A DNA stretch of 64,000 nucleotides from sequence record NC_052661.1. One strand, written 5' to 3'. The DNA comes from Escherichia phage ukendt. The translations under genes were made by a program, and so were the position numbers. Under the pieces are notes generated by a model. That model was not told the origin of the DNA, searched no databases, and saw only the letters and a program-made list of their open reading frames with translations. Numbering within the stretch: position 1 is the stretch's first letter; each line of letters opens with the position of its first letter. Below are positions 32,012-45,984 of the stretch, piece by piece.

Positions 32012-32017
32012 AACCGC

Positions 32018-32077: not shown

Positions 32078-32101
32078 TAACAAAGAGAAGAGGAAAACAT
32101 C

Positions 32102-32275
32102 ATGATCACTTTCGCTACCCGTGAAGCCGCTCGCAACGTTGCACGTAAAGTTAACGCCGCCAACCTGGGCGCTACACTTAAAGCCCCGGTGAAAGATGAA
32201 TCAGGCAAATGGATCTTCCCTGGTCTGCGTCATGCTGACAAGTTAGGTACTTTAAGCCTTAAAAATAATCGTTGA
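32102..32275 (+). CDS. cassette small protein
   Basis: 57 aa ORF not in track; promoter-hairpin module. Confidence 0.4.
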   Translation: MITFATREAARNVARKVNAANLGATLKAPVKDESGKWIFPGLRHADKLGTLSLKNNR

Positions 32276-32309
32276 CTTTTCGTTATAGCGCCTTACAATG
32301 GGCGCTATA
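32272..32309 (+). promoter_or_regulatory. variant cassette promoter with palindrome across the -10
   Basis: TTGACT, 16 nt, TACAAT, embedded in TATAGCGCC...GGCGCTATA inverted repeat. Confidence 0.45.
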
Positions 32310-32342
32310 GAGAAGAGAAACCACTATTAACAAGGAAACATC

Positions 32343-32564
32343 ATGATTACTTTTGCTATTGTCGCCGTTGTTGCTGGTCAGGTTTACGTAAATGATACAT
32401 TCACCACAGAAGACAAGGCAGCAGGAGACATCACCGCCGCTTATAATGAGTGCAAGGCAGTAGAAAGGATGTTAGCGCCTTGTATGCTAATGAGTGAACG
32501 CCAGGACGGAATAACAGTATTTACTAACATTGAAACAGGGTACCAAATGGTAGTAACAAAATAA
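32343..32564 (+). CDS. cassette small protein
   Basis: 73 aa; variant promoter with palindrome. Confidence 0.5.
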   Translation: MITFAIVAVVAGQVYVNDTFTTEDKAAGDITAAYNECKAVERMLAPCMLMSERQDGITVFTNIETGYQMVVTK

Positions 32565-32567
32565 AGC

Positions 32568-32624
32568 TTGACACCGATTTAATTTTTAGTAAACTGTTAC
32601 ACGTAGGGCGGGAATAGTTCCCGC
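32568..32624 (+). promoter_or_regulatory. cassette promoter + 5' hairpin module
   Basis: TTGACA, 16 nt, TAAACT, then GCGGGAATAGTTCCCGC hairpin. Confidence 0.55.
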
Positions 32625-32643
32625 TCAAAAAGAGAGAAAGACC

Positions 32644-32997
32644 ATGAAAGCACAAAATGCAATTAAAGAGTACATCCTTGCCGCTATCGATTTTAATGAT
32701 TACGGTATTACAACCGAAAAAGAGAAGATCGCGGAATTGATGCGCCGTTTTAATTCCGAGTACTGGTACCCTGATAACCAATCACGTTTTAATTATAGTA
32801 TTGTTAAAGCACTTGCATCATGGTTACAAGGCTTGCCATCAGATATCAATATCGCTTTCGAATATTGGGAAATTGATCGCCTGTTAACATCCTGGGGATA
32901 CATTAAAGAGAATAGCAGCGATGATAAAATCCAACGAGAAAGGGAAAATTATTGGCTTTATATTGCAGGCGTGATCCTTGCTTGCTCTTATGAATGA
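32644..32997 (+). CDS. cassette small protein
   Basis: 117 aa; promoter-hairpin module. Confidence 0.5.
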   Translation: MKAQNAIKEYILAAIDFNDYGITTEKEKIAELMRRFNSEYWYPDNQSRFNYSIVKALASWLQGLPSDINIAFEYWEIDRLLTSWGYIKENSSDDKIQRERENYWLYIAGVILACSYE

Positions 32998-33003
32998 TAA
33001 ACC

Positions 33004-33058
33004 TTGACAATTTTACAAAACAGTTTAAATTAACAATATAGCGGCAATGGTGCCGCTC
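33004..33058 (+). promoter_or_regulatory. cassette promoter + 5' hairpin module
   Basis: TTGACA, A/T-rich -10 region, then GCGGCAATGGTGCCGC hairpin. Confidence 0.5.
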
Positions 33059-33076
33059 ATATGAAGAGGAAACAAA

Positions 33077-33223
33077 ATGAATACATCTAATCGCGCAGAA
33101 AAAATTCAATCTTCCAAGATCCGCAAGGCCTGGAACGAGGAAGTGATCCGCAAAGGCGACAAGCGCAATAAAACAAAGCGCGGGAAGAGTGACAAATATA
33201 ATTGGATGGATTTAGAGGATTAA
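33077..33223 (+). CDS. cassette small basic protein
   Basis: 48 aa Lys/Arg-rich; promoter-hairpin module; followed by terminator. Confidence 0.4.
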   Translation: MNTSNRAEKIQSSKIRKAWNEEVIRKGDKRNKTKRGKSDKYNWMDLED

Positions 33224-33230
33224 CATAACA

Positions 33231-33257
33231 AGGGCGCATCAAGCGCCCTTTCTTTTT
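33231..33257 (+). terminator. rho-independent terminator inside the cassette array
   Basis: AGGGCGC-ATCAA-GCGCCCT followed by TTCTTTTT. Confidence 0.6.
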
Positions 33258-33278
33258 ACATGTAGAGGATAAACAAAA

Positions 33279-33464
33279 ATGATTTTAAACGAGCTTAAAA
33301 CAGCCTACAACGCAACATTAAAAATAGCCGTGCGTTACCGTGATGCGTACGGTTTTATCGCGCAGGGCGTGATCCTGGGCTTTTCTGACGATGGTTTGAT
33401 CTATGTTGATGCACATCACAACAAGGTTAAACCGGAAAACGTTATCAATATAAAATATCTTTAA
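33279..33464 (+). CDS. cassette small protein
   Basis: 61 aa; RBS GAGGA. Confidence 0.45.
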   Translation: MILNELKTAYNATLKIAVRYRDAYGFIAQGVILGFSDDGLIYVDAHHNKVKPENVINIKYL

Positions 33465-33470
33465 AAGTGG

Positions 33471-33527
33471 TTGACACCATAACCGGACCTGTTAAACTGT
33501 ATTACATCAGGCGGGGAATAGTTCCCC
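33471..33527 (+). promoter_or_regulatory. cassette promoter + 5' hairpin module
   Basis: TTGACA, 16 nt, TAAACT, then GGGGAATAGTTCCCC hairpin. Confidence 0.55.
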
Positions 33528-33550
33528 CACCATACAAAAAGGTAAATATT

Positions 33551-33757
33551 ATGATCACCGCAAAACAAGAAAAAATCATTATCGACGTTGCAGCCGTTGC
33601 CGCTATTGCTATTATTGGATCTTATTATGATACCCGTTTCCCGTCGGCTATGCATGAGATCGCCGCCGTTGCATCAGTCGGCGTGCTGTTTTACGTTGGT
33701 AAACGCTATTTATCACCAATGATTAACAAGCTGACACCGTGGAAAAATAAAGGTTGA
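33551..33757 (+). CDS. cassette small membrane protein
   Basis: 68 aa; promoter-hairpin module; start refined to 33551. Confidence 0.5.
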   Translation: MITAKQEKIIIDVAAVAAIAIIGSYYDTRFPSAMHEIAAVASVGVLFYVGKRYLSPMINKLTPWKNKG

Positions 33758-33810
33758 TCCTGTTTTATATTGTGTTATAGTTATCGTGTAGGGCGGCAAT
33801 GGTGCCGCGC
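33754..33810 (+). promoter_or_regulatory. cassette promoter + 5' hairpin module
   Basis: TTGATC, 16 nt, TATAGT, then GCGGCAATGGTGCCGC hairpin. Confidence 0.5.
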
Positions 33811-33829
33811 CCCCTTTGAGGATGAAATC

Positions 33830-34114
33830 ATGAGTAAAGCTAACACCGTGCTAATGTTTTCCCTGATTAATGATCCCGCTTACTTGTCCAACATGACGCA
33901 GGAGGGTAACACATTAACGGCAACATTCACCAATAAGCTTGACCGAGTGATCATCATCTCACTGAAAACAGTTAGTAAAGGCTTTTACTCGTTAGCTTAT
34001 CATTGGATCACCGATACCGATGAGACAAGCCAGGACTATAGCGCCCCTTTCCCTGAATCAATGGCACGGGAGATCATCGCCGCCGTTGTAAATGATGGTT
34101 TGTTTACTGCATAA
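33830..34114 (+). CDS. cassette small protein
   Basis: 94 aa; shares 25-nt initiation region with gene at 24955. Confidence 0.5.
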   Translation: MSKANTVLMFSLINDPAYLSNMTQEGNTLTATFTNKLDRVIIISLKTVSKGFYSLAYHWITDTDETSQDYSAPFPESMAREIIAAVVNDGLFTA

Positions 34115-34131
34115 ATAATTTAGAAAAAGGC

Positions 34132-34188
34132 TTGCAATCATTTTGAGATAGTGTATATTTAATTCATAGGGCGGCGGGAATAGTTCCC
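34132..34188 (+). promoter_or_regulatory. cassette promoter + 5' hairpin module
   Basis: TTGCAA, 16 nt, TATATT, then GGGAATAGTTCCC hairpin. Confidence 0.5.
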
Positions 34189-34211
34189 AAAGCAAACGAG
34201 AGGATTACACG

Positions 34212-34330
34212 ATGAGCAAGTACACAGTAGAATACACGGTAGAAAATCCGGCAGTATCCGAAGGTAAAAAGATGACATTTGCCATCAGTATAATCGCTTT
34301 CGTTGTCACTATCTTATCAATCATCTTATA
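34212..34330 (+). CDS. cassette hydrophobic peptide
   Basis: 39 aa with C-terminal TM segment; promoter-hairpin module. Confidence 0.35.
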
Positions 34331-34341
34331 AGGTGCACACC

Positions 34342-34503
34342 ATGAAAACAACAGATATTATCAAAGAGATCGCCCTTGCCGCTGGCGTTGAGATCGAGGA
34401 AGTGATCGCGCTCAATCTTACAGAAAACGATCTGCGCAACTATGAAGCGGAAAGCGTGAAAGCAAGCGGTGCGATCCTGGCATATAATCCGGCTAACAAG
34501 TAA
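34342..34503 (+). CDS. cassette small protein
   Basis: 53 aa ORF. Confidence 0.35.
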   Translation: MKTTDIIKEIALAAGVEIEEVIALNLTENDLRNYEAESVKASGAILAYNPANK

Positions 34504-34512
34504 GGGGATAAC

Positions 34513-34623
34513 ATGAATCCGAAAGATATGCAAGCATGGAAAGGGTACGACGATCTGAGCGCCTTGCGTAATAAGTCCAGCCGTAACCTTAGACGATTGC
34601 AAGCAAAGAAAAAGAAAAAATAG
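34513..34623 (+). CDS. cassette small basic protein
   Basis: 36 aa ending KKKKK. Confidence 0.3.
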   Translation: MNPKDMQAWKGYDDLSALRNKSSRNLRRLQAKKKKK

Positions 34624-34624
34624 T

Positions 34625-34682
34625 TTGACAAGTCCGCTTAATCTGATAATATGTATCTTGTAGGGCGGCAATGGTGCCGCTC
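34625..34682 (+). promoter_or_regulatory. cassette promoter + 5' hairpin module
   Basis: TTGACA, 16 nt, TAATAT, then GCGGCAATGGTGCCGC hairpin. Confidence 0.55.
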
Positions 34683-34701
34683 ACAAGAAGAGAGAAAAAT
34701 C

Positions 34702-34986
34702 ATGAAAATCACAAAAAGCCTAACTAATTATGCAGCACGTCGCGGATTATGTTTAACCGTTGAAAACTTAGGGAAAGAAGACTTTTTGTGTTTTTGGGAG
34801 CTTGAAAACGATTGCGAGTGGATGTTTTCCTATTCTATCTGCGAAGATCAAAACGGTTGTTTGTTAACCTGGCGCGGTAATATTTATTTACCGGAAGAAA
34901 TTAAAGAGGAATTACCAGGTACGATCATGACAGAGAGACAGCTTAAGGAAATGATTAATTTTGTAGGGCAAAACATTAAAAAATAA
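34702..34986 (+). CDS. cassette small protein
   Basis: 94 aa; promoter-hairpin module. Confidence 0.5.
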   Translation: MKITKSLTNYAARRGLCLTVENLGKEDFLCFWELENDCEWMFSYSICEDQNGCLLTWRGNIYLPEEIKEELPGTIMTERQLKEMINFVGQNIKK

Positions 34987-34987
34987 T

Positions 34988-35050
34988 TTGACAGCACGCA
35001 AACAACGTAGTAAAGTTTACCACATAGGGCGGCGGAATGGTCCACCGCTC
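34988..35050 (+). promoter_or_regulatory. cassette promoter + 5' hairpin module
   Basis: TTGACA, 17 nt, TAAAGT, then GGGCGGCGGAATGGTCCACCGC hairpin. Confidence 0.55.
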
Positions 35051-35071
35051 ACAACAGAAGAGAAACAAATC

Positions 35072-35242
35072 ATGATCCCGACTATGTTTTATGTATCGCG
35101 CAAAGGTCACAATATTTTTTGGTCTGAAGATTTAAATGAAGCCATGACGTTTGCCCGTGATCGTGTTGCTATCGGTGGCGTTAACATCACCGTAACCGAT
35201 GAAAATGGCATTGAATACTATAACGGCGACGATGAAGAGTAA
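35072..35242 (+). CDS. cassette small protein
   Basis: 56 aa; promoter-hairpin module. Confidence 0.45.
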   Translation: MIPTMFYVSRKGHNIFWSEDLNEAMTFARDRVAIGGVNITVTDENGIEYYNGDDEE

Positions 35243-35249
35243 TTAATGA

Positions 35250-35267
35250 GGCGGGGAGTACCCCGCC
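35250..35267 (+). promoter_or_regulatory. cassette-type GC hairpin without recognisable -35/-10
   Basis: GGCGGGGAGTACCCCGCC, 20 nt upstream of the ATG at 35287. Confidence 0.4.
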
Positions 35268-35286
35268 GTCAATAAAGAGGTAAATC

Positions 35287-35556
35287 ATGAAAATATCATT
35301 GGACGTTGCAATCAAGGCCATCGAATCCGGTTACATCCTGGTAAAAGATGATAAGGCTAAAATAGTGCATCATGTTAACAAGGAAACAGGCGAGAGCATG
35401 ATCACATATAAAGCCGCCTACTTTCTCCAATCAGTAGCAGATCCGCGCGTACAACGCCAGGTTACAGCGGCTATTGCTAAAAAATTATGTGCTTTACAGG
35501 GTGCAAGTTTTAACGAGATTGCCCCGTGTTTTGAGTGGTCAAGCTTGAAAAAATAA
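35287..35556 (+). CDS. cassette small protein
   Basis: 89 aa; preceded by GC hairpin only. Confidence 0.5.
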   Translation: MKISLDVAIKAIESGYILVKDDKAKIVHHVNKETGESMITYKAAYFLQSVADPRVQRQVTAAIAKKLCALQGASFNEIAPCFEWSSLKK

Positions 35557-35557
35557 T

Positions 35558-35619
35558 TTGACAACAATTATAAATCGGGTAGAATGTATTTCGTAGGGCG
35601 GGGCAATAAGGCAACGCCC
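35558..35619 (+). promoter_or_regulatory. cassette promoter + 5' hairpin module
   Basis: TTGACA, 16 nt, TAGAAT, then GGGCG...CGCCC hairpin. Confidence 0.5.
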
Positions 35620-35634
35620 ATTAATGAGGGTAGA

Positions 35635-35742
35635 ATGATGTTAGAGAAAATTTTCACGGTTGTAATAGTGGGCCTGGCGTTATCGGTTGGAGTGGTTGCA
35701 ACTATGGCTAACATGATCCTATCTTCCCACGGTATCGGCTAA
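35635..35742 (+). CDS. cassette hydrophobic peptide
   Basis: 35 aa single TM; promoter-hairpin module. Confidence 0.35.
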   Translation: MMLEKIFTVVIVGLALSVGVVATMANMILSSHGIG

Positions 35743-35752
35743 GGTGAAACAA

Positions 35753-35968
35753 ATGATCACGAATAAGACAGGTAAAACGGAATTTTTACGCGGCTTGCAA
35801 GTTGGTAAACCTGAGATCTGGCATTGTACTAAATCCGCGCATAATGAAATGAAAGATTTTACCGCTACTTTACAACGTGTTAAAATATCTATCACACAGA
35901 AAAAAGCCTTGTTAGTAGTAGAAAACGAGATCCCGCAAACTATTATTATTGTCGAGCGTACAGCATGA
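35753..35968 (+). CDS. cassette small protein
   Basis: Start refined to ATG 35753. Confidence 0.45.
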   Translation: MITNKTGKTEFLRGLQVGKPEIWHCTKSAHNEMKDFTATLQRVKISITQKKALLVVENEIPQTIIIVERTA

Positions 35969-36351
35969 AAACAGAAATCATTATTGAAATCATCAACGGT
36001 TATAAAGAAGCCTTTATTTTTGCTGAATCAGCAAGGGATCATGAAGGTAATTTTATTGAAAACTTAGACGATTATGATTTTTCTCCTAGCGCGGACGAAC
36101 GGATCGCCCAGGATGTAACAGCCTTTATTAATGCTAATCTTGCCGCTATCTCTGAGGCAATGAGCGACGGCGCAACAGCCAACCAGATCGGGAATGATTT
36201 ACATTTTACCCGTAACGGTCACGGCGTAGGCTTTTGGGATCGCCCTGAAATATACACCACTAACACGGCGAACCGCCTAACCAATGCAGCTAAGTTTATG
36301 CCGAACGTGTCGGCTTACATTGGTGAAGATAATTTGATTTATATTGAATAA
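35965..36351 (+). CDS. cassette small protein
   Basis: 128 aa; translationally coupled. Confidence 0.5.
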   Translation: MKTEIIIEIINGYKEAFIFAESARDHEGNFIENLDDYDFSPSADERIAQDVTAFINANLAAISEAMSDGATANQIGNDLHFTRNGHGVGFWDRPEIYTTNTANRLTNAAKFMPNVSAYIGEDNLIYIE

Positions 36352-36357
36352 AAAGTA

Positions 36358-36415
36358 TTGACACAGATCGCCAGTGTGCTAATATTTACCACGTAGGGCG
36401 GCAATGGTGCCGCCG
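36358..36415 (+). promoter_or_regulatory. cassette promoter + 5' hairpin module
   Basis: TTGACA, 16 nt, TAATAT, then GGCGGCAATGGTGCCGCC hairpin. Confidence 0.55.
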
Positions 36416-36432
36416 ATAATGAGGAAAGTAAA

Positions 36433-36732
36433 ATGGAAACTATCGCTATTGTTACCGTAGAAAAACTGGTTGTTGGTGATGTATTCGCGTTAATGGTGCC
36501 TAACAGCAGCAAGCTGGGCGCTTATGAAGTAATGGATCATAAAAATGAATCATTTGGCGACGGTTGCACAATGGCGGTAAAATCTTTAAAGGATGGAATT
36601 ATCCGCCAGGCTAACTGGCACAAAGGGAATCAAGTCGGTTTAATATCAGCTAATTTCTTGCCAGAAGAGCAAACGTTAGACCAACTATCAGGCGGTAAGA
36701 CGTTAGCCGAACTACTGGAAACAGCGATCTAA
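36433..36732 (+). CDS. cassette small protein
   Basis: 99 aa; promoter-hairpin module. Confidence 0.5.
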   Translation: METIAIVTVEKLVVGDVFALMVPNSSKLGAYEVMDHKNESFGDGCTMAVKSLKDGIIRQANWHKGNQVGLISANFLPEEQTLDQLSGGKTLAELLETAI

Positions 36733-36739
36733 TCGACAA

Positions 36740-36755
36740 GGGGCGGCAACGCCCC
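36740..36755 (+). promoter_or_regulatory. cassette-type GC hairpin without recognisable promoter
   Basis: GGGGCGGCAACGCCCC between stop at 36732 and ATG at 36786. Confidence 0.35.
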
Positions 36756-36785
36756 CATTAAACGCAATAGGAAGAGGATAGACAC

Positions 36786-37076
36786 ATGAAAAAGATGATC
36801 GCAGTAGTTGCCCTGGTTGTTGGTATTAACGCGCCTGTAATGGCGAAAGAGTTGCCAGAATCCATCACGTTAACCGATATCAACGCAATAAACCGGATCG
36901 GCGTTAATTATCGCCTATGCCTTGCCGCTAAAACTTTCCAGGACGGCACAACAGAGTACTACGGATTCGAGGGTACCCGCTGCGGTGAGCTTGCACGCGA
37001 CCTTAAGGAAGATCCAGACCTTGAGGCCATACCGATGACCGTAAACGGTAAAGCTTACGTAAACCGCCAACAATGA
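36786..37076 (+). CDS. cassette secreted protein
   Basis: 96 aa; signal peptide MKKMIAVVALVVGINAPVMA. Confidence 0.5.
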   Translation: MKKMIAVVALVVGINAPVMAKELPESITLTDINAINRIGVNYRLCLAAKTFQDGTTEYYGFEGTRCGELARDLKEDPDLEAIPMTVNGKAYVNRQQ

Positions 37077-37207
37077 GAAAGGTAATCATCACAATGGGGA
37101 TCGTAGTAGCAACGCTGGCGCTTATCCCCTTCATGGTTGAACATGTGCTGATCAGTGTTGTCCTTGTAGTCAGTGACCTATTGGAAACGGTTGGCACCTG
37201 GTTTTAA
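37073..37207 (+). CDS. cassette hydrophobic peptide
   Basis: 44 aa ORF overlapping upstream stop (ATGA). Confidence 0.35.
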   Translation: MRKVIITMGIVVATLALIPFMVEHVLISVVLVVSDLLETVGTWF

Positions 37208-37381
37208 GATAATAAATAGGGCTTGCAATAGTCCTATTTTTTGTTATACTTATTGAACGGGCGGCACCTGGGAGCAGGGGAAGATAATCACCGGAAGACC
37301 CCGCTATATATTGATAACTAACGCCTATCAAACAACAAAACATCAAAGGAACAAACTATCAAATCTTTACAATTCTACCTA

Positions 37382-37410
37382 TTGACACCGGATCACGCTT
37401 ACATTATTAT
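37382..37410 (+). promoter_or_regulatory. sigma70-like promoter with degenerate hairpin
   Basis: TTGACA, 17 nt, TATTAT, then ACGTAGGGC without the complementary arm. Confidence 0.45.
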
Positions 37411-37456
37411 TTATCACGTAGGGCAAATCATTTTAAACGGTAAACGAGGAATCACC

Positions 37457-37840
37457 ATGAGCAATATCATCAACCTGGCAGCGACTGTAAACGGTAAAGA
37501 CTTTAACGGCGCTGTAGACCGTGATCCTATGTGGTGCTTGTCAGTGTTTAAAGGTGACTTGGTTGAAGTTAGAACAACCGAAGGGTATAGCGATGATTAT
37601 AAATGCGAGATCCATTTACATAACTGGTACACGGGTAAAACTTATGCGCTGAATCATGCGTTTATCGGCAAGGTTGAATATAGAGAAATGATCGACGATG
37701 AAACGGGGCAGGATTTTAGCGAAAACGTTTATATTCGTTCCGAGACATTAGCCGAACGTTTGATCGAGAAAATGAAAGCAAAAAATAAAATTAATTTATC
37801 TCATTGGATTGATATAACAAACGATCCAGCTTATCAGTAA
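37457..37840 (+). CDS. cassette protein
   Basis: 127 aa; promoter without hairpin; followed by terminator. Confidence 0.5.
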   Translation: MSNIINLAATVNGKDFNGAVDRDPMWCLSVFKGDLVEVRTTEGYSDDYKCEIHLHNWYTGKTYALNHAFIGKVEYREMIDDETGQDFSENVYIRSETLAERLIEKMKAKNKINLSHWIDITNDPAYQ

Positions 37841-37855: not shown

Positions 37856-37882
37856 AGGGCGCACAAAGCGCCCTTTCTTTTT
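37856..37882 (+). terminator. rho-independent terminator at the right end of the cassette array
   Basis: AGGGCGC-ACAAA-GCGCCCT followed by TTCTTTTT; near-identical to the terminator at 33231. Confidence 0.6.
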
Positions 37883-38019
37883 GCCCGAACAATGTTGATA
37901 GCTTTCGCCTATGAAAAACCGACACAGAACAAAACTGAATAAATCACGGTATCAAGCTAATCGACCATTAAACGAATAACCATACATCCCAGGGCAACAG
38001 GCTGTTAGAGAGCTATTTA

Positions 38020-38360
38020 GAGCGGTTAAAATCGATCAACAACCAACAACAAACCATCAAAAACACCCTTTTACCTCCTTTCTAGTGCAATGATAACCAT
38101 TATCATCTACCCATGATTATCTATGCAATATAAGCGCATAATTATAATGTTGATAATAGTTCGCAACAACTAACCAACAAACAACATAAAACAATAAGCA
38201 AACTAATCATAATCAAAGGAATAATAGCAAGATGATTGATAACGACAAACAATCAAACCATGATGAATACTAAGCAAAACAACGATAACACGACAAAACA
38301 ACCAACTAACGAACAATAACAAACGAAACCATTAAAATAACAACTATTAGCAAAATAGTG
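38020..38360. repeat. A+C-rich low-complexity tract with AAC/CAA repeats
   Basis: Long runs such as CAACAACCAACAACAAACCATCAAAAACACCC with almost no G on the plus strand and no ORF. Confidence 0.55.
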
Positions 38361-38489
38361 CCTAAATGAAATCATTACAAAACGAATCATTCACAGGATC
38401 ATCATTAGCACGCTATGCCGGACACATAGCGAGCTAATAATAAGCCAACTACACCCCAACAATCATAACCATCGGTGACGGTTATTTCT

Positions 38490-38520
38490 TGTTACTGCGT
38501 AGCTTGCAATAATTGCAAGC
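38490..38520. repeat. perfect palindrome CTTGCAATAATTGCAAG
   Basis: 17-bp inverted repeat within the non-coding region. Confidence 0.45.
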
Positions 38521-38843
38521 GTAATGACGCTTACACTTATTGCGCTGGCTTATTATTAGCATTATATGTAATTACCAAGATCATAACATTAGCGCAATAA
38601 CAATAATCATTGTGGTAATTACAAGATGAAATCATTAGCAAGATGAATAATTGCACGTAGCAACATGAGCGAATAGCGACAGGTTGCATAGTGTGCACAT
38701 AGTGTATAAACATACAAGAAAATAAAGGCTAATCTTTTGGGGGCGAATACTATCGCGTAGCGATATGTTGAGCACCTTCTCTTAAACGTAAATAAAATCA
38801 GAAAATTCTTGATTTATTTTAGTTTTTATGTTAATAAACGTTT

Positions 38844-38864
38844 AAATAATAATCATTCTCATAT
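38844..38864. promoter_or_regulatory. Fur-box-like operator (site C)
   Basis: AAATAATAATCATTCTCATAT shares the core AATCATTCTCAT with sites B and D. Confidence 0.4.
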
Positions 38865-39002
38865 AAATAATAGTCTGCTTGTCATGAGCGGGATTAGTTG
38901 ACAATGTTCCGTCATATGATGAAGTTGCCAAACCATTGATAAATAAGTGTTTGTGTGATTTATAATCAAGTGGCCCACCTTGTCGCTATGTTGGCATGAG
39001 CC

Positions 39003-39044
39003 TTGCATAAGTCATTGAATACGAATGATAATTATTCTCATTCG
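39003..39044 (+). promoter_or_regulatory. promoter with Fur-box-like operator across the -10 (site D)
   Basis: TTGCAT, 17 nt, TGATAAT; palindrome CGAATGATAATTATTCTCATTCG. Confidence 0.5.
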
Positions 39045-39374
39045 CATGATATTTGGGAATTGTCGCTGCGTGGACCTGACGGCCCGAAAATTCGCGTTAA
39101 GCACTTCTTACGTATGCGCCATGATTTTTGCCATATGATATTGATTCTATTAGATATTCTTGCCATGAAACAAGGTGTGTCGAAATAATCTCTCCCCGTA
39201 GATATTTTGGGTTACTTTTTATACAAGAGTGGGGTGTCAAAAATAATCGGTATATATGGGATAATTGATAGGAATCCCCTATGGTAATTCGATTGTAATT
39301 CCTTAAGATTGATCGTATGATGTTGGTGATTGATGATTGCCATGAAAGATGGCTAACGATGAGAGGAGATTGTC

Positions 39375-39749
39375 ATGCAAGAGAGTAAAAATATTCCGTT
39401 GAGTAGTGCAACATTGCTTCGCTTCTATAAAGCATGGATTGCCAACTATCCTGCAATGAATCGCACAACGAGTGGCTTATGTGGTTGTCTGGTAGATTAT
39501 GTAGATGATTTTGTTGGTGAGACAACTAGAGAAGAAGATAGAAGATGGCGTGATCATTTGTTGGACCGTTTGAAATATGAAATGAGGAAACAATTTACAT
39601 GTGCAGGGCTGGACTACAATCTTCCGTTCAATGCAGATTGCATGGATTACCTTTCAGAGTGTATAAACTTGGCGTGTCATACCAACACGTTACGTCTTCA
39701 ATGGGTGAAAGATCGGATTGAAGATGCAAATAATGCTTGCATTGAATAA
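39375..39749 (+). CDS. family A paralog (WVKDR motif)
   Basis: 124 aa; GLCxxL...LPF...RLQWVKDRI shared with four other ORFs. Confidence 0.55.
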   Translation: MQESKNIPLSSATLLRFYKAWIANYPAMNRTTSGLCGCLVDYVDDFVGETTREEDRRWRDHLLDRLKYEMRKQFTCAGLDYNLPFNADCMDYLSECINLACHTNTLRLQWVKDRIEDANNACIE

Positions 39750-39798
39750 AGATGTTTGTATAATGGATGACATAACAGATAGCCAATGAGGAGATGAA

Positions 39799-40008
39799 AT
39801 GAAGAATTTGAAAACTGTCACAATGTTCTTGACTGATCCTACACGTGTGCAAGCACTGGCTAAAGCCAGCCGTGTAGCTGTAGAATTCCAAAACTTTAAG
39901 CCGTCCGTTGTGACAGGCAGTGAAACGTGTGTTATCGATTTCATTAACGAATACTTCCGAGGGAATCCGGTTGGTCGTTACTTTATTAAGGGTCTGAAGG
40001 ATGCATAA
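39799..40008 (+). CDS. hypothetical protein
   Basis: 69 aa; RBS GAGGAG. Confidence 0.5.
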   Translation: MKNLKTVTMFLTDPTRVQALAKASRVAVEFQNFKPSVVTGSETCVIDFINEYFRGNPVGRYFIKGLKDA

Positions 40009-40231
40009 CATGAAACGCATGAAAATTCGTATTGAGAATGGTGGTGGTTATAAAGGATTGGCACATGCAAAATTTCCACTTGTGTTGGAAGCTACAGTGG
40101 AATACAGTGGGCTTGCTCATGTGCGATTCTCGAAGATGATGGAAGTGCAGGAATGGTTTTGGGACGAGATAGATGCACGAGAAGGAGAAGATTATGTTTT
40201 CTTTCCTCACGAATATAACATTGTCTATTAA
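40001..40231 (+). CDS. family B paralog (EGxDYVFF motif)
   Basis: 76 aa; WFWDE...EGEDYVFF shared with 44336..44557. Confidence 0.5.
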   Translation: MHNMKRMKIRIENGGGYKGLAHAKFPLVLEATVEYSGLAHVRFSKMMEVQEWFWDEIDAREGEDYVFFPHEYNIVY

Positions 40232-40243
40232 AGGTTGTGTGCA

Positions 40244-40483
40244 ATGATCACACCACAACAGAATGAAGCAGCAATGGATCTTCTTGATAGTTTGTATTTC
40301 GATAATTGGTACTCTGAATGTGAATGGATGAATGTGCAAACTCTGAAAGAGAAGACAGAAGCGTTGATTACCGTAGATCAATTTCTTGCAGAGACGGAAA
40401 GAATGAATTATGATATGGCATCTCGCGCACGACGCGTTTCCATTTTCAATAAAATGTTAGCATTATGGGGAGGTAGAAAATGA
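40244..40483 (+). CDS. hypothetical protein
   Basis: Start refined to ATG 40244. Confidence 0.45.
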   Translation: MITPQQNEAAMDLLDSLYFDNWYSECEWMNVQTLKEKTEALITVDQFLAETERMNYDMASRARRVSIFNKMLALWGGRK

Positions 40484-40941
40484 GACAATTCACTATACTG
40501 GCAGCTTATGTGCAATGTGTTCACGACTATGTTAGTGCTCATACAGGTGTGCTGGAAGTTACCAGTAAAATTGAAGGTAATATGGGTACTGTCTGTGTGC
40601 AACATACTTTATCCAATGTGCCGTTTAAAGTGTTCACTGTTGTAGCTGCCGATTACAATCGTGTAGATGTGCGTTTCTTGGATCATAATTTTCGTAACGC
40701 ACTAGATAATATCGAAGATTATCTTCCCGTGAAACCTTTGTCATTTCCACCGAGTCGTGCAAATAATGTAGTGACAAACCTTAATGAAAGGAATGTGGCT
40801 ATGCACAAAAAAGTTCGTCAATTGAAAATGCTGATGGAAATGCAAGAAGAGATTGAAAAAGAACTGAAAGAAGATTTCGGTATGCTTCCAAAAGACGCTT
40901 TGAAATGGTATGATGAACTAGGAGGAGAAAGTTATGAATAA
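40480..40941 (+). CDS. hypothetical protein
   Basis: 153 aa ORF. Confidence 0.5.
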   Translation: MRQFTILAAYVQCVHDYVSAHTGVLEVTSKIEGNMGTVCVQHTLSNVPFKVFTVVAADYNRVDVRFLDHNFRNALDNIEDYLPVKPLSFPPSRANNVVTNLNERNVAMHKKVRQLKMLMEMQEEIEKELKEDFGMLPKDALKWYDELGGESYE

Positions 40942-41128
40942 AGGAACTACTGTATATTTAGTGACTAAGAACACCCCAGGTTGGAATCAGTGCACAACAA
41001 CTCCATATAAAGTCTGTGCAACACTGGAATTAGCACAACGTGCAGAAGCAGAAGTTGATGCTATGCAATACAGCTACGGTGAAATCATTCCTTTTACTCT
41101 TGAACAAGAAGGAGCACATCATGTTTAA
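40934..41128 (+). CDS. hypothetical protein
   Basis: 64 aa ORF. Confidence 0.45.
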   Translation: MNKGTTVYLVTKNTPGWNQCTTTPYKVCATLELAQRAEAEVDAMQYSYGEIIPFTLEQEGAHHV

Positions 41129-41906
41129 AGTAGGTTTTGTTTATAATTTCAAATCGGAAGATACCAAAAAGAATTTTGGTAAAGCCAGTATTCGTAACGC
41201 TTTCTTTGTAGGTTGCATTCAAGATAGTAAGTTTAAAGTTTTAGATGTTGATTTTCTAGGTTCTGTGTCAAAGGTGAAGGTATTAGACACAAATAAGATC
41301 ATCGAAGGTAGTTCTGGGCTTTTTCCTGAAGGCTATAAGCTTGTAAGTTGTATAGATTATAGTCGTTTTGAAGAACATCCTCCTGAAGATTATGAGGATT
41401 CTCCTACAGGAGGTTGTGTCTTTGTAGAAGGTGGTGTCTATAAGTTTGCAAGTGAACAAGATCGTAAGCTTTTCGCCAATTATATTGACGGCGGACAAAC
41501 GACAAACAATGTAAACCGAAAAATTTCCGATCTTATTGGCGATGATCCTTTCGTGATCACAAAGATGGTTGGACAAGATGTAACAGCAATCCGTAGGCTT
41601 GTATGTAATACAAATCATGTAGCAGGTGAAGGTTGGTTCAAGGAAGCTTGTGCGCTGCTAATCAAAAGTGATAACCCTTATTTTAAAAATATTAAAGATG
41701 TTGTTGAGCCTAAACAAGAGGAACCCGCAGCGAATTTTAAACACTATGCTATTGTTAAAGGTATGAATGTCCAACTGGTGTCACATTCTTACGAAGAGAT
41801 CGCCACAGAAGCAAAAAAGATGAAGGAAGAATACCCAATTTCTACTGTTGAGATCTATGAGCGTATTGGTGTTGTTAGTATTGAGCCTACTGCGGTAATA
41901 AAATAA
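41121..41906 (+). CDS. hypothetical protein (MFKV family)
   Basis: Start refined to ATG 41121; N-terminus MFKVGFVYNFKS paralogous to 41916..42353. Confidence 0.5.
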   Translation: MFKVGFVYNFKSEDTKKNFGKASIRNAFFVGCIQDSKFKVLDVDFLGSVSKVKVLDTNKIIEGSSGLFPEGYKLVSCIDYSRFEEHPPEDYEDSPTGGCVFVEGGVYKFASEQDRKLFANYIDGGQTTNNVNRKISDLIGDDPFVITKMVGQDVTAIRRLVCNTNHVAGEGWFKEACALLIKSDNPYFKNIKDVVEPKQEEPAANFKHYAIVKGMNVQLVSHSYEEIATEAKKMKEEYPISTVEIYERIGVVSIEPTAVIK

Positions 41907-41915
41907 GGAGCTATT

Positions 41916-42353
41916 ATGTTCAAAGTTAATGCTGTTTACTGTTTCAAAAGCAAAGCTGCATGTGAAGCTTTCTCTATGATCTCTGATGAAAATTTCAAAA
42001 TGGCAGCTTTGATTGAAGGGTCTTGTTTCCGCGTCGAAGATGTTAGTGAATCAGGGTCTGTTTGCTCATTGACTTTATTGGACAGCGGAGATATTATTGA
42101 AGCTGGACAGTATCCGTTCAGAAGTTGGGAGATATTGTTAGCTCGCGGAGAGCGTAACTTTTTTATGTGCGTGTCTGCGGGGGAAGTTGTGAAAGAAACT
42201 AAGGATGTTTCTGTTTACAATTCTGAATTTATAAGTTATAGTGAGTATCAACATCTGGAAGGCATTGTTGGTCACTTGTTATCTCTGATTGACATTGAAT
42301 GTGACTTGCCTGAATCATTGAAAGAAGAGTTGAAAGCATTAGATCTGCTGTAA
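41916..42353 (+). CDS. hypothetical protein (MFKV family)
   Basis: 145 aa; N-terminus MFKVNAVYCFKS. Confidence 0.5.
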   Translation: MFKVNAVYCFKSKAACEAFSMISDENFKMAALIEGSCFRVEDVSESGSVCSLTLLDSGDIIEAGQYPFRSWEILLARGERNFFMCVSAGEVVKETKDVSVYNSEFISYSEYQHLEGIVGHLLSLIDIECDLPESLKEELKALDLL

Positions 42354-42380
42354 TGTTCCGCACAACGAAAGGAGAATAAA

Positions 42381-42680
42381 ATGAATCTGACCGAACAGTT
42401 ACGCCGTATTGCAAAAGAAGCTTCCTTCAACTTCCCTGTTGAAGAAGTGATCGAGACATGTTTTGCTGAAGCACGAGCGGGAAACTCTTCAAGAAATTTC
42501 ACGCCATCTGATTTTGGTCTGGATAATTCCCCTACCCACCCAGGGGAGATCTACAATCAGGTGAAGTGGATGGATGAAGCAGTAGCAATTCTTCGTGAGC
42601 GTGGGCTTATTGTTTATAAAGAAATGGATCTGAACGGGGCATACGAGTGGATCACTATTGATTGGTCGGAGGTGAAATAA
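42381..42680 (+). CDS. hypothetical protein
   Basis: 99 aa; RBS AAAGGAG. Confidence 0.5.
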   Translation: MNLTEQLRRIAKEASFNFPVEEVIETCFAEARAGNSSRNFTPSDFGLDNSPTHPGEIYNQVKWMDEAVAILRERGLIVYKEMDLNGAYEWITIDWSEVK

Positions 42681-42889
42681 TGGTTACTATCACATTGACA
42701 GTTACACAAGAGCAAGCAGAAGAATTACGTGATGCAGTGGCATACATGGGACGCTCTTATTATATGCCTTATAAATCACAAGATGTTTTTGCTACAGCCA
42801 TTGAGAAAGCTTTAAACAAATATCGAGAAACTCATGCCGTTCCTAAAGTATCAGCAGAAGAGTTTGGCACTTGGCACGAAGTTAACTAA
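42680..42889 (+). CDS. hypothetical protein
   Basis: Start refined to ATG 42680. Confidence 0.45.
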   Translation: MVTITLTVTQEQAEELRDAVAYMGRSYYMPYKSQDVFATAIEKALNKYRETHAVPKVSAEEFGTWHEVN

Positions 42890-42899
42890 GGAGGTATCG

Positions 42900-43133
42900 A
42901 TGAAAGGTAACAAGATGAAAGTTAATCAGGTACCGAGTGCATACACTTTGTGGCTTGCGCGAGCGTTACACCAGACGATCAAAAATCCTAAGAAGCCAAT
43001 GAAGAGTGGGAAGAAGTTTATGTCTAAGGGCAAAACAACCTTTGGCTTCACTCGTATGTCTGTTAAGATGGAAAGGCTGGGGTACAAGCCAAACTACGCT
43101 CGTTACCCTTCCGAATACAACTGGTTTGACTAA
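42900..43133 (+). CDS. hypothetical basic protein
   Basis: Start refined to ATG 42900 after AAGGAGG. Confidence 0.45.
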   Translation: MKGNKMKVNQVPSAYTLWLARALHQTIKNPKKPMKSGKKFMSKGKTTFGFTRMSVKMERLGYKPNYARYPSEYNWFD

Positions 43134-43148
43134 AGAGGAGAACAAAAC

Positions 43149-43433
43149 ATGAAAACATCTATTCGCGTGAAACATGATCCGAACAGCAGTTACCCATACG
43201 TGTATGTTGAACGTCATGAAGGGGACTATTACACCATAAAACGTAAAGTCCCAACTGACACAGGGTTTAACTTCGATGTTATCGCACTGGATGATCAAGG
43301 TGTTGATAATCTGGTGAATGCATTACTCGCATTGAAGGAAGTACGACATGAAAATCAGACTAAAGGTAAAGTGGCTTTCGATTCTTGTGATCGTTTAGCC
43401 GAAGAGATTGCCGAATGGCGTGATACTCACTAA
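43149..43433 (+). CDS. hypothetical protein
   Basis: 94 aa; RBS AGAGGAG. Confidence 0.5.
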   Translation: MKTSIRVKHDPNSSYPYVYVERHEGDYYTIKRKVPTDTGFNFDVIALDDQGVDNLVNALLALKEVRHENQTKGKVAFDSCDRLAEEIAEWRDTH

Positions 43434-43448
43434 AACAGGAGAAAGATT

Positions 43449-43625
43449 ATGGCTACTTTTCAACAACTCAAAGATGTTTCACGTTTAGTAAGAAAAATCC
43501 GAGAAGCAGACGCTGCTGTGCGGAATGCATTAACGCCAGCAGAGCGTGAAGATCTTGAAGAGGAGGTGAAAACAGCCGAGAATGCTTTTGCTGCGTATCT
43601 TTCAACACTGTACACAGGAGGTTAA
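43449..43625 (+). CDS. hypothetical small protein
   Basis: 58 aa ORF not in track; RBS CAGGAGA. Confidence 0.35.
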   Translation: MATFQQLKDVSRLVRKIREADAAVRNALTPAEREDLEEEVKTAENAFAAYLSTLYTGG

Positions 43626-43940
43626 ATGTCAGAAGAACTTAAAGAATTTTATCAGGCATATCATAACTGGCTGTTAGCTGGTGCTCCAGATAATAATCCT
43701 TTCTGGCACGATAAAGGGTTATGTAGTTGCCTCTACCTTTGGACTGGTGGTTACGATGATCTAAATTATGAAATGCAAATGCAATTTCGAGAAGCAGGGT
43801 TGTCTGAAGAATACCCGTTTGATGACGGGGACAGGTTTAAATATGATTTTGCACAAAGAAACGGGCTGCTACATTTGAATGCTGCCCGTATAAAATGGGT
43901 AAAAGATCATGCTACACAGGAGGATGTGCAATGCCTATAG
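43626..43940 (+). CDS. family A paralog (WVKDR motif)
   Basis: 104 aa; WLLAGAPDNNPF...GLCSCL...RIKWVKDH. Confidence 0.55.
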   Translation: MSEELKEFYQAYHNWLLAGAPDNNPFWHDKGLCSCLYLWTGGYDDLNYEMQMQFREAGLSEEYPFDDGDRFKYDFAQRNGLLHLNAARIKWVKDHATQEDVQCL

Positions 43941-44131
43941 TGTTTGTTTTCTTGGCGATTGTTATTGTAGTTCTTTTCGCTGCATGGCTTTGGGATTTTG
44001 ACCCAGGAGCCGCGCAGCAAAGAGCTACAGACTTGAAAGAACAATGTATTGTGCTCAAACATGAACGAAATGCGGAGAAATTTCTTGACCTGGAGTGTGA
44101 TCGCCTTGTAAGATACAAGCAAGATAAATAA
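43931..44131 (+). CDS. small membrane protein
   Basis: Start refined to ATG 43931 (MPIVFVFLAIVIVVLF). Confidence 0.45.
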   Translation: MPIVFVFLAIVIVVLFAAWLWDFDPGAAQQRATDLKEQCIVLKHERNAEKFLDLECDRLVRYKQDK

Positions 44132-44145
44132 CCTTGAGGTGCAAA

Positions 44146-44334
44146 ATGGTAATTGAGATTAAACTTGAATATGCTGGGGCTGTTGCCTTGATCGCACAAA
44201 TGCTTGGAGCAAAGATTGAAGAAGTGTATATCAATGCCTGGAGCGTAGAGATTGATGTTCCTATGGATAACATTGCTAATCGCTTGCTGGTAGCAGAGTG
44301 TGAACGCACCAACATAATCTACAAAGGAGCATAA
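44146..44334 (+). CDS. hypothetical protein
   Basis: Start refined to ATG 44146. Confidence 0.45.
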   Translation: MVIEIKLEYAGAVALIAQMLGAKIEEVYINAWSVEIDVPMDNIANRLLVAECERTNIIYKGA

Positions 44335-44335
44335 T

Positions 44336-44557
44336 ATGAAAATTAGAGTTTGTGATGTATTGGGTTATGTTGGTTTTGAGAATGTTCAGATTCCTTTTGT
44401 TGTTGAAGCACATCTTGTTAGCGATGATATGACAACATTCTTTGTTACGATAGAAGAAATGTCTAAAGTTGAGGGATGGGAGTGGTTTGAAGAAGATGTT
44501 TGGGAAGGTTGTGATTACGTATTTTTCTCTGACGAAGTGAATGTTCTTTCGGAGTAG
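44336..44557 (+). CDS. family B paralog (EGxDYVFF motif)
   Basis: 73 aa; WEWFEEDVWEGCDYVFF. Confidence 0.5.
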   Translation: MKIRVCDVLGYVGFENVQIPFVVEAHLVSDDMTTFFVTIEEMSKVEGWEWFEEDVWEGCDYVFFSDEVNVLSE

Positions 44558-44559
44558 GT

Positions 44560-44766
44560 ATGTCTTGTTTTACAAAAGCAGTGTCCATATGTAAGAAACA
44601 GTATGAAAGTGATTACGGAATATTTAATCTTCCAGTGGATCATACGGAGTATTGTTCATGTGGTGGCAGGATGAAGAAAACAGTGATTTATGCGGATAAT
44701 GGAGATGAACTTGTTCCGGTTATGGTTTGCAAAGCTTGTCATTCTGTTAAAACATTAAAAGCGTAA
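44560..44766 (+). CDS. zinc-ribbon small protein
   Basis: 68 aa; CSCGG...CKAC. Confidence 0.45.
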   Translation: MSCFTKAVSICKKQYESDYGIFNLPVDHTEYCSCGGRMKKTVIYADNGDELVPVMVCKACHSVKTLKA

Positions 44767-44861
44767 GGAGTCGGGACACCCGACGATTGGAGCTAAAAAT
44801 TTTGCGTACAACCCTTTCCGCCCAACAGGGGCGCGTCGGGTAAATAAAGAGGAGAGTTTAT

Positions 44862-45260
44862 ATGAAAAAGATCATCGTAGGTTTCTTGTTACTCATTGCA
44901 TCACTTGGAACAGCAAGTGCGTCTCAAGTTTATGAGTGTGTGTCAGATGTGGTTGTTAAAAATCTGAAAGGTGAAGTGATTTCTGGTCCTAAGAAAATGG
45001 CTTCTGTTATCATTAATAAAGATAACTCCTTTATCCTTAAAAATTCGGGTGGTGCTTTGATGAGTGGCATTCTGCAATACACAGGAGAAAAAAGTAAAGA
45101 TGGTAGTGCTATGTACGGTTCACAACAGTTTATTGGCACTACTGAAGTTGTGATGATGCGCACAGAGTATCGAGACACTTTGGCTTGGTTTGCATTTCTA
45201 AAAAATGATAAAACAATAACGAATGTTCTTACTCTAGAAGCTGATTGCACGCAACGATAA
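44862..45260 (+). CDS. secreted protein
   Basis: 132 aa; signal peptide MKKIIVGFLLLIASLGTASA. Confidence 0.5.
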   Translation: MKKIIVGFLLLIASLGTASASQVYECVSDVVVKNLKGEVISGPKKMASVIINKDNSFILKNSGGALMSGILQYTGEKSKDGSAMYGSQQFIGTTEVVMMRTEYRDTLAWFAFLKNDKTITNVLTLEADCTQR

Positions 45261-45269
45261 GGGGTATTT

Positions 45270-45716
45270 ATGACTAAAATGAGACATTATGCTGTAAACT
45301 GTAACGATGTTTGGCGTTTGTGTCCTGATGATCCGACAGAAGGCACATTTGTAAGATATGAGGATTATAAAGAGTTATCAGATGCTGTGATCGCATTGTT
45401 AACTGATATCCGTTCACGTTATCCAGGACAAGATTTCACTTGCCCTCACATCAAACTTCTTGCTTGTCTGGTAGAAGGTGAGAAAGAAGTGGAAGATGGC
45501 TTCAAGCGTGTAGAGTATCAAGGTGAAACTTTAGAGGTTCCTGAATTTGTTAATTATATTGCAACAGATTCGAGTGGCGAGCGTTATGGCTACAGCCATA
45601 AGCCAGAGATTCCTGATTGGATTCCCGCTTGGAGATATTCCGTTAGTACCGGAGACTATATCTTCCTTGGTGTAGGTAGTAGTAAGGATTGGCGTTTCTC
45701 TTTGACAGAGGTTTAA
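45270..45716 (+). CDS. hypothetical protein
   Basis: 148 aa ORF. Confidence 0.5.
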   Translation: MTKMRHYAVNCNDVWRLCPDDPTEGTFVRYEDYKELSDAVIALLTDIRSRYPGQDFTCPHIKLLACLVEGEKEVEDGFKRVEYQGETLEVPEFVNYIATDSSGERYGYSHKPEIPDWIPAWRYSVSTGDYIFLGVGSSKDWRFSLTEV

Positions 45717-45720
45717 TAAT

Positions 45721-45984
45721 ATGAAAGAGACATTGCCAGCAGCATACCGTTTGAATGATGAACGTATTTGGGAGTGGACCGACGTTTCTTGTTTTTACCC
45801 TGAAATAGTTCAATATTGGCGAGCGAAAGGGTGTGTTGTAGTTATCAACCCTTGTGGACCAGTAGATGAAGATTGCTTGTATCTCGATGGAAAGTGGCAC
45901 AGTTATTGTCGCTGGCCTTTTGAGTGGATGTGTAAAGAAGATCTCCCAGAGGGTTGGGAGTATCCAAAAGCAAATAGGAGATAA
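45721..45984 (+). CDS. hypothetical protein
   Basis: 87 aa ORF. Confidence 0.5.
   Translation: MKETLPAAYRLNDERIWEWTDVSCFYPEIVQYWRAKGCVVVINPCGPVDEDCLYLDGKWHSYCRWPFEWMCKEDLPEGWEYPKANRR

Follow-up and report, generated by a model that had tools for sequence, protein, structure and literature searches.

Why would a virulent coliphage carry, at the ends of its DNA, sites built like the operators that its host uses for iron control? The question is raised by two palindromes, boxes C and D, in a 64,000-nt stretch of the genome of Escherichia phage ukendt (NC_052661.1), hereafter the window. The window is 94-98% identical to the phAPEC8-like phages (genus Phapecoctavirus, subfamily Stephanstirmvirinae), which are virulent E. 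coli myoviruses with a genome of about 150 kb, and Fur boxes are known from textbooks as operators of bacterial iron genes. A first-pass annotation had described C and D as the second of two pairs of Fur-box-like operators, the first being A and B, placed upstream of a right-hand early gene block. Here we find that both boxes have the sequence of host Fur operators and that they are conserved parts of a region identified by homology as the direct terminal repeat (DTR). The relatives used for comparison were drawn from GenBank phage records; a search for related loci in viral contigs gave one locus.

Sequence and position of boxes C and D

Both boxes are present exactly as first written, and their occurrence lies far beyond chance. 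The 19-bp Fur consensus GATAATGATAATCATTATC, taken as an inverted repeat of 7-1-7 form (TGATAATnATTATCA), served as the criterion for a Fur box. C differs from it at two positions, D and a further box, E, at one each, and the copy of C in phage phi92 at none (15/15). Allowing up to two mismatches to the 7-1-7 consensus TGATAATNATTATCA, we found 7 matches in the window against 0.86 expected, a count that none of 100 shuffles reached; five of the seven lie within three non-coding spots. A repeat finder that was given no motif beforehand places C and D in one group with four copies at 27696, 27725, 27754 and 27783, the left cluster, to which A and B belong. A symmetric matrix built from these six copies scores C at 24.3 bits (22.5 when C is left out) and D at 24.9 bits (19.2 when D is left out). 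Sites above 17 bits number 7 in the window, compared with a mean of 0.055 in first-order Markov random sequences of 64 kb. C and D are thus boxes of the Fur type, homologous to those of the left cluster. The 12-nt core AATCATTCTCAT said to be common to A, B, C and D is exact in C (at 38851) and in the left cluster (at 27790), but the copy in D (AATTATTCTCAT at 39030) has one mismatch.

The same repeat-derived matrix was applied to 76 kb of E. coli K-12 DNA, taken as three stretches. Its eight top hits all fall in six Fur-controlled promoter regions, which make up only 1.67% of the DNA scanned. The best scores in these regions are 23.6 bits for fecI, 20.5 for fepB/entC, 20.4 for fhuA, 17.9 for fecA, 14.7 for fepA/fes and 13.1 for fepD/entS, promoters that are established as Fur-regulated. 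C and D score as high as these host operators, and the fhuA box TTATAATAATCATTCTCGTTT has 15 consecutive bases in common with box C. Host operators and phage boxes are built on the same palindrome, TGATAAT-N-ATTATCA. They differ in their setting: the E. coli operators overlap promoters of iron-uptake genes, whereas C and D are surrounded by a phage terminal repeat, lack an iron-related gene downstream and have a promoter that is only predicted. Judged by their letters, C and D are indistinguishable from host Fur operators, and we infer that Fur of the host binds them. Zur boxes, the half-site core of which is TGTTATA, have similar flanks (AAATG...CATTT). This assignment was rejected, as the half-site core TGA(T/G)AAT of the phage boxes differs from that of Zur at three of seven positions and the matrix retrieves Fur promoters.

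The DTR was assigned by homology, and the window holds one copy of it. At least eight deposited relatives start or end exactly at the equivalent of window position 38771. In the record of phage Schickermooser, prefix and suffix are identical over exactly 329 bp, which align to window positions 38771-39099; the length given in the Schickermooser paper is 328 bp (PMC6563267). The terminal repeat of BME3 measures 342 bp, and phi92, which belongs to a sister genus (NC_023693), has annotated repeats DTR-L and DTR-R of 343 bp that are homologous to the same window segment. Because only a single copy is found, the window is a permuted or collapsed assembly. By homology, C and D lie inside the DTR and would therefore be present at both ends of the virion DNA, in which an array of small genes (28438-37840) would stand at the right end and the plus-strand block beginning at 39375 at the left end. 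This changes two statements of the first-pass annotation. The boxes are not simply upstream of the right-hand block, since they belong to a repeat found at both virion ends. The small-gene array does have conserved Fur-type boxes on both sides, also in the more distant phage Av-05, but the appearance that C and D bracket it comes in part from the permuted assembly.

The two boundaries of the DTR carry a related motif, GTT(G/A)^AGCAC(C)TTCT, where the caret marks the boundary (38771 and 39099/39100). At the left boundary TGTTGAGC is invariant in 11/11 genomes, and the motif of the inner boundary, the position of which was fixed from the exact repeats of Schickermooser and phi92, is kept in 11 genomes. 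Because the two motifs are related, they suggest that two similar cutting or nicking sites generate the terminal repeat. Protein coding across the DTR was considered and rejected: no gene is annotated there in curated relatives, and the alignment contains indels of 1, 2, 4 and 6 nt. A tRNA scan found no tRNA genes. Rfam gave no match at gathering thresholds in the whole window; in the two non-coding regions it gave microRNA noise below the thresholds and nothing else.

Conservation was followed in eleven genomes of three lineages: Phapecoctavirus proper, the clade of phiWec181, phiWec190 and PsgM04F, and Justusliebigvirus (phi92, muut, phiWec187 and KKP_3264). Identity of the DTR to that of the window ranges from 55% (phi92) to 64% (phiWec190). 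C, D and E nevertheless hold equivalent places in all eleven genomes. Within the core of C, 13 of the 15 columns are invariant, compared with 40% of the DTR columns outside the boxes, and few stretches of the repeat are as well conserved as the boxes. The centre of C lies 84-86 bp from the terminus in 10/11 genomes; muut was set aside for left-terminus distances, as its repeat figure of 367 bp probably reflects a premature match of the boundary pattern. From the inner boundary to the centre of D, all 11 genomes have 62-66 bp. In the other lineages D is widened by at least 6 nt to overlapping or tandem boxes (GATAATGATAATTATTCTCA), and the widened form GATAATGATAATTATTCTC matches the classical 19-mer at 17/19 positions. 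The DTR of phi92 has the same boundary motifs as that of the window, with boxes at 79-93 and 274-288. Its annotation names the repeat but not the boxes, of which C is the perfect copy of the consensus mentioned above and D is lengthened by extra hexamers. As C, D and E keep their places at such low overall identity, the alignment indicates that the boxes are maintained by selection. Because this conservation extends across related phages, the phage probably uses the iron sensor of its host at its DNA ends.

Could the boxes instead be AT-rich palindromes with no function, present by chance or by descent? The regions are AT-rich, with 34% G+C at 38001-39000. However, Markov models of the same AT-rich non-coding stretches yield a site above 17 bits in only 0.4% of trials, the boxes stand out in a repeat that otherwise diverges strongly, and the layout recurs in another subfamily (Av-05, below). 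We consider absence of function very improbable.

Promoter-like elements and possible control of the left-end genes

The first-pass annotation had box D overlapping the -10 element of a promoter TTGCAT, 17 nt, TGATAAT. The hexamers are present, the pair being equivalent to TTGCAT-18-GATAAT, and a rightward promoter-like pair with its -10 inside D exists in every lineage, although it is formed from differing hexamers; in 8/11 genomes it reads TTGAAT-18-TATTCT. The proposed -35 is weak. TTGCAT matches the consensus at 3/6 positions, and the pair is not listed by the consensus scan and reaches about 6.9 bits by hand calculation with the weight matrix. Between C and D, a second promoter-like pair occupies the same alignment column in 11/11 genomes, with a mean of 9.8 bits. 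Its -10 is weak in the window, and the phi92 version, TTGACA-17-TAGACT, scores 14.2 bits.

The clearest operator-type architecture of the set, as read from the sequence, is found in Av-05 (NC_025830; Avunavirus, Vequintavirinae), which has boxes at 17684, 26550, 26610 and 27460. A 27.9-bit box upstream of its array of small plus-strand genes exactly occupies the spacer of TTGAAT-18-TAGAAT; a pair corresponding to E and its degenerate partner E2 follows the array terminator, and another box lies about 900 nt further on. Box E is kept in the eleven genomes of the three lineages and in Av-05. E2 is strong in the phi92 lineage (TGATAATCATTCTTA), and its Av-05 counterpart scores 12.6 bits.

The reading that we favour, with a probability of roughly 40%, is that C and D are sites for host Fur-Fe2+ that modulate transcription started in the DTR by the host polymerase, and that they have been kept by selection within the DTR. 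Three considerations lead to it: Fur acts as a repressor, the boxes of every lineage are flanked or overlapped by promoter-like elements, and the arrangement in Av-05 is canonical. Host RNA polymerase would start rightward transcripts at promoter-like elements of the DTR, that between C and D and that over D, and these transcripts would run across the inner boundary of the DTR into the genes of the left-end block. With ample iron, the boxes would be filled by Fur-Fe2+. Fur on D would then either hide the -10 element or block polymerase arriving from the conserved promoter, which lies about 100 nt upstream of D, while C would lie about 80 nt upstream of that promoter. Occupancy by Fur would damp early transcription initiated in the DTR, and the boxes would be vacant when iron is limiting.

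Several observations weigh against this reading. Strong repression of essential early genes appears improbable, because rich media replete with iron are used routinely to grow these phages. The TTGCAT -35 is not conserved, with TCGCCT or TCTTAT at its place in other lineages, and promoter-like matches are no more frequent in this AT-rich stretch than chance would give (11 found, 8.8 expected). The overlap of D with a -10 element is itself weak evidence, because Fur boxes by nature contain -10-like hexamers. Promoter-like sites that are free of boxes lie nearer to the gene block and are stronger, and Fur could therefore at most modulate its expression. Two further box clusters, one in the left part of the window and one in phage T5, are flanked by convergent genes, and there is no protein-coding operon that they could control. 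Finally, the spacing between C and D varies (179, 185 or 195 bp), while their distances to the DTR boundaries are fixed. The proposal that the whole block 39375-56180 is under the same control is likewise not indicated, because the better box-free sites lie between D and the first gene; C and D would affect, at most, transcripts initiated in the DTR.

The features of the region are collected in Table 1.

Table 1. Boxes, repeat boundaries, promoter-like pairs and first gene of the left-end block (window coordinates)
Feature	Position	Strand	Remarks
Left cluster, four boxes (A and B of the first-pass annotation)	27696-27803		boxes at 27696, 27725, 27754 and 27783; spacing about 29 nt
Box E, CAATGATAACCATTATCATCT	38088-38108		17.9 bits with the matrix, which was built without E; 214 nt past the array terminator
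Box E2, degenerate partner of E	38148-38168 (about)		3 mismatches in the window; about 60 nt beyond E
Left DTR boundary motif, ATGTTG^AGCACCTTCTCTTA	38765-38784	+	boundary reads ...ATGTTG^AGCACC...
DTR	38771-39099		329 bp; assigned by homology; one copy in the window
Near-palindrome AAATCAGAAAATTCTTGATTTA	38795-38816		12/15 columns invariant; among the four most conserved DTR stretches
Box C, AAATAATAATCATTCTCATAT	38844-38864		Fur-box-type palindrome; core TAATAATCATTCTCA at 38847-38861
Promoter candidate between C and D, TTGACA-17-GAAGTT	38898-38926	+	sigma-70-like prediction
Pair of the window lineage, TTGATA-19-TATAAT	38936-38966	+	12.8 bits, best of the DTR; long spacer; not conserved elsewhere
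Promoter-like pair over D, TTGCAT-17-TGATAAT	39003-39032	+	TTGCAT at 39003-39008, TGATAAT at 39026-39032
Box D, CGAATGATAATTATTCTCATTCG	39022-39044		Fur-box-type palindrome; core TGATAATTATTCTCA at 39026-39040
Inner (right) DTR boundary motif, GAAAATTCGCGTTA^AGCAC	39086-39104	+	boundary reads ...CGCGTTA^AGCACT...
Box-free pair TTGCCA-18-AATAAT	39160-39189	+	consensus scan/weight matrix
Box-free proximal pair TTGTAA-17-TATGAT	39293-39321	+	10.6 bits; 8/11 genomes; 54 nt 5' of the first gene
First gene of the left-end plus-strand block	39375-39749	+	124 aa, no known family

The DNA on either side of the DTR has features of its own. To the left, a 900-nt non-coding stretch (38020-38340 and 38396-38660) is strongly A/C-rich on its top strand, with repeats of the CAACAAC type, and it contains nested inverted repeats (38396-38447/38546-38569, 38506-38543 and 38567-38623) that are recognizable in phi92 too. 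To the right, just outside the DTR, GGGGTGTCAAAAATAATCGGTATATATGGGATAATTGATAGG at 39231-39272 is almost invariant in 11/11 genomes and is the most conserved element of the leader. A partial copy of it is found at 39173-39190, and in the window lineage a TGnGATAAT extended -10-like element lies within it.

The left cluster and the stop signal of T5

The boxes of the window are not limited to two pairs, as had been thought. The left cluster consists of four boxes, which score 22.7-29.2 bits and correspond to the repeat families D10 and D17, and E with its degenerate partner E2 comes after the terminator that closes the small-gene array (37856-37874). The left cluster sits between the convergent genes 26712-27254 (+) and 28062-28328 (-). 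Because its flanking genes are convergent, it is not the operator of a protein-coding operon. At the equivalent place phi92 has four to five boxes. AT-rich direct repeats of a 72-nt and a 34-nt family lie directly to the left of the four boxes (27473-27690), and phi92 has such repeats too. Evenly spaced palindromes beside an AT-rich repeat tract, as in the region 27473-27803, resemble by analogy a replication origin.

These four palindromes, which recall origin iterons, are among the reasons to consider that the boxes are operators of a phage-encoded DNA-binding protein (an early shut-off repressor, a replication initiator or the small terminase subunit), their likeness to Fur boxes being coincidence or mimicry. 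Most of the early proteins lack a recognizable domain: Pfam found none in nine of them, nor in the 88-aa gene beside the left cluster. In addition, gp005 of phi92 is annotated as a predicted transcription regulator. On the other hand, the motif retrieves only true Fur operators in the host DNA that was scanned, and box C of phi92 matches the Fur 7-1-7 consensus perfectly. The motif also occurs in T5-like phages, which have no first-step proteins in common with the window phage, and tblastn with E. coli Fur found no match in phAPEC8/phi92-type or T5-like phages, so that a Fur-family gene is seen in neither group. A dedicated phage protein thus seems to us a rather improbable ligand.

In T5 (NC_005859), a siphovirus unrelated to the window phage, boxes of 18.5-29.3 bits are found at 9551, 9586, 9655 and 9690 (9551-9710), within the annotated injection stop signal (9140-10149), which has four or five Fur-type boxes in all. 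In Davison's analysis the first-step shear point of T5 lies at about 9618, in the DRE repeats of Repeat Region 3, the function of which is called unknown, and Fur is not mentioned. The same cluster is present in the T5-like phage VEc33 (L091 1047-1570), and 55 nt of it are 87% identical to the left cluster of the window. The T5 stop signal is non-coding, carries a cluster of the same boxes between convergent genes, and lies about 8% of the genome length from the end. The left cluster fits this description, being a non-coding repeat cluster 11.4 kb, or 7.5% of the genome, from the right end (39099), as compared with 7.9% in T5. The two systems also differ. The T5 signal lies inside a terminal repeat of 10 kb, compared with 0.33 kb in the window phage. 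T5 has paired DnaA boxes, whereas the DnaA box TTATNCACA occurs once in the 64 kb of the window against four expected, and nowhere in the box regions. It also has the proteins A1 and A2, but tblastn with all proteins of the T5 left repeat gave nothing at E<0.1, either in the window or in the 100 kb of Schickermooser that were covered, and hence no A1 or A2 homologue. A further T5 box at 230-250, with a perfect 7-1-7 repeat, lies 230 bp from the terminus; it is kept in VEc33.

These parallels bear on a different proposal, namely that the boxes bind Fur or another protein in order to serve the DNA ends and not promoters. They could mark or hold the DTR boundaries for cutting and duplication by terminase, protect or anchor the entering end, or delimit the segment that enters first, as in T5. 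In this last variant the right-terminal 11.4 kb, comprising the left cluster, the array, E and the DTR, would be a domain similar to the first-step-transfer DNA. The fixed distances of the box centres to the DTR boundaries (84-86 and 62-66 bp), at a variable distance from each other, argue for a role at the ends, as do the four T5 boxes around the shear point and the one near the T5 terminus. The clusters of the window and of T5 both control no gene, and their sequence identity over 55 nt and similar distance from the end point the same way. The absence of first-step proteins common to T5 and the window phage points to a shared host factor. Against a role at the ends stand the lack of A1 and A2 homologues and of DnaA boxes, which accompany the repeats in T5 but not the boxes of the window; moreover, the T5 box at 230 lies in coding DNA, that of dmp, and is weaker in EPS7. 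We also know of no role of Fur in DNA entry or packaging. A function at the genome ends that is independent of promoters is a serious rival to the reading that we favour, though on balance the less likely of the two.

A bolder version combines these elements: two groups of virulent coliphages that are unrelated to each other would depend on Fur as the trans-acting factor still missing for the functions of their genome ends, and the box clusters would delimit the block of small early genes that enters first. Bound Fur would then help to arrest or organize DNA entry, or to define the terminal repeat. To this version we give little credence. If it were true, the 50-year-old injection stop signal of T5 would gain a molecular identity, and stepwise entry of the T5 kind would be predicted for phi92/phAPEC8-like myoviruses.

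Boxes of this type extend beyond these phages, as the exact 19-mer AATGATAATCATTCTCATT is present in at least 120 IMG/VR contigs, often in clusters, which is far above plausible chance. In the unrelated 41-kb viral contig IMGVR_UViG_3300025631_000015, the overlapping ends carry a (GAGAAT)n run and five Fur-type boxes (L023 1-420, L051 6815-7234).

The DNA that separates the left cluster from the array was also inspected. In the window segment 27805-28078, a -10-like GAGAAT directly follows the last box of the cluster, and relatives have TTGAAT-18-TAGAAT, CAGAAT or CTGAAT with a box in the spacer (L005 1100-1400, L077 1785-2110, L083, L087 and L035). A G+C-rich non-coding segment of about 250 nt comes next; its identity is 91% to phi92 and 74-83% to Av-05 and other contigs, and it closes with the hairpin AAGCCCgatccctGGGCTT and a T-run. 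This segment is a candidate for a Fur-controlled small RNA or, alternatively, for the 3' region of the convergent 88-aa gene. It has no Rfam match, and RNAalifold is neutral as to the strand (-28.5 vs -29.7). The array itself (28438-37840) comprises about 25 small plus-strand genes, most of them preceded by a near-consensus promoter TTGACA-17-TAnnAT and the conserved stem-loop TAGGGCGGCAATGGTGCCGC. It presumably resembles the promoter-plus-stem-loop cassettes of T4-type phages.

Iron, known systems and meaning of the boxes

The strong boxes of the window number seven, namely the four of the left cluster, E, C and D, and the rest of the window scores at most 12 bits. In the remaining 100 kb of Schickermooser the top score is 12.6 bits. 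With the duplicated DTR, a virion genome would carry nine. The classic Fur titration assay relies on derepression of the Fur regulon by Fur boxes in multicopy. A replicating genome with seven to nine high-affinity boxes might therefore act as a sink that titrates Fur and derepresses iron uptake and iron-sparing functions, to the benefit of the phage's own iron-dependent ribonucleotide reductases. The boxes are equal to natural operators or better, the phage group has genes for ribonucleotide reductases of class Ia and class III, and in the light of the titration assay some titration by replicating nine-box DNA is hard to avoid. However, decoys need no fixed position, whereas the positions of the boxes are conserved within a few bp across lineages, and the boxes are limited to three non-coding spots instead of being spread over the genome. 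A benefit within a single lytic cycle is also hypothetical. Titration is thus quite an improbable reason for the boxes. The roles considered here are not mutually exclusive.

Schickermooser encodes NrdAB (class Ia), NrdDG (class III), a glutaredoxin and ThyX (L138 10904-14277, L139 43883-47653). All of these except ThyX are iron- or redox-dependent, which is a possible reason for the phage to sense or manipulate the iron control of its host.

Host regulatory proteins acting on phage DNA have precedents. Fur boxes are known on temperate lambdoid phages before sitABCD (PMC6969025). Like C and D, these are sites for host Fur on phage DNA, but they regulate cargo that benefits the lysogen, whereas the window phage is virulent and its boxes lie in cis-acting non-coding DNA of the ends. 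The stx1 promoter of a temperate phage is likewise iron-regulated. At lambda cos, IHF is a host DNA-binding protein used at the packaging site. As with C and D, its site lies beside the place where genome ends are formed; in contrast, the protein is a different one, the ends of lambda are cohesive, and a packaging role for C and D is hypothetical. In the literature searched, which was incomplete, no paper that we found describes Fur boxes in virulent phages, be it in their terminal repeats or in non-coding regions with a control function, and none identifies the T5 injection-stop repeats as Fur boxes.

Phage specialists would hardly expect such boxes in the cis-acting DNA that forms the physical ends of a virulent phage genome. 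The phage belongs to a family that is used in therapy against pathogenic E. coli. The boxes in the injection-stop region of T5 make an old question about the stop signal testable with simple tools. If Fur binds the DTR, phage development would be tied to the iron status of the host. In this respect the gut and infected tissue are very unlike laboratory broth, and such a link would therefore bear on how these phages perform in therapy.

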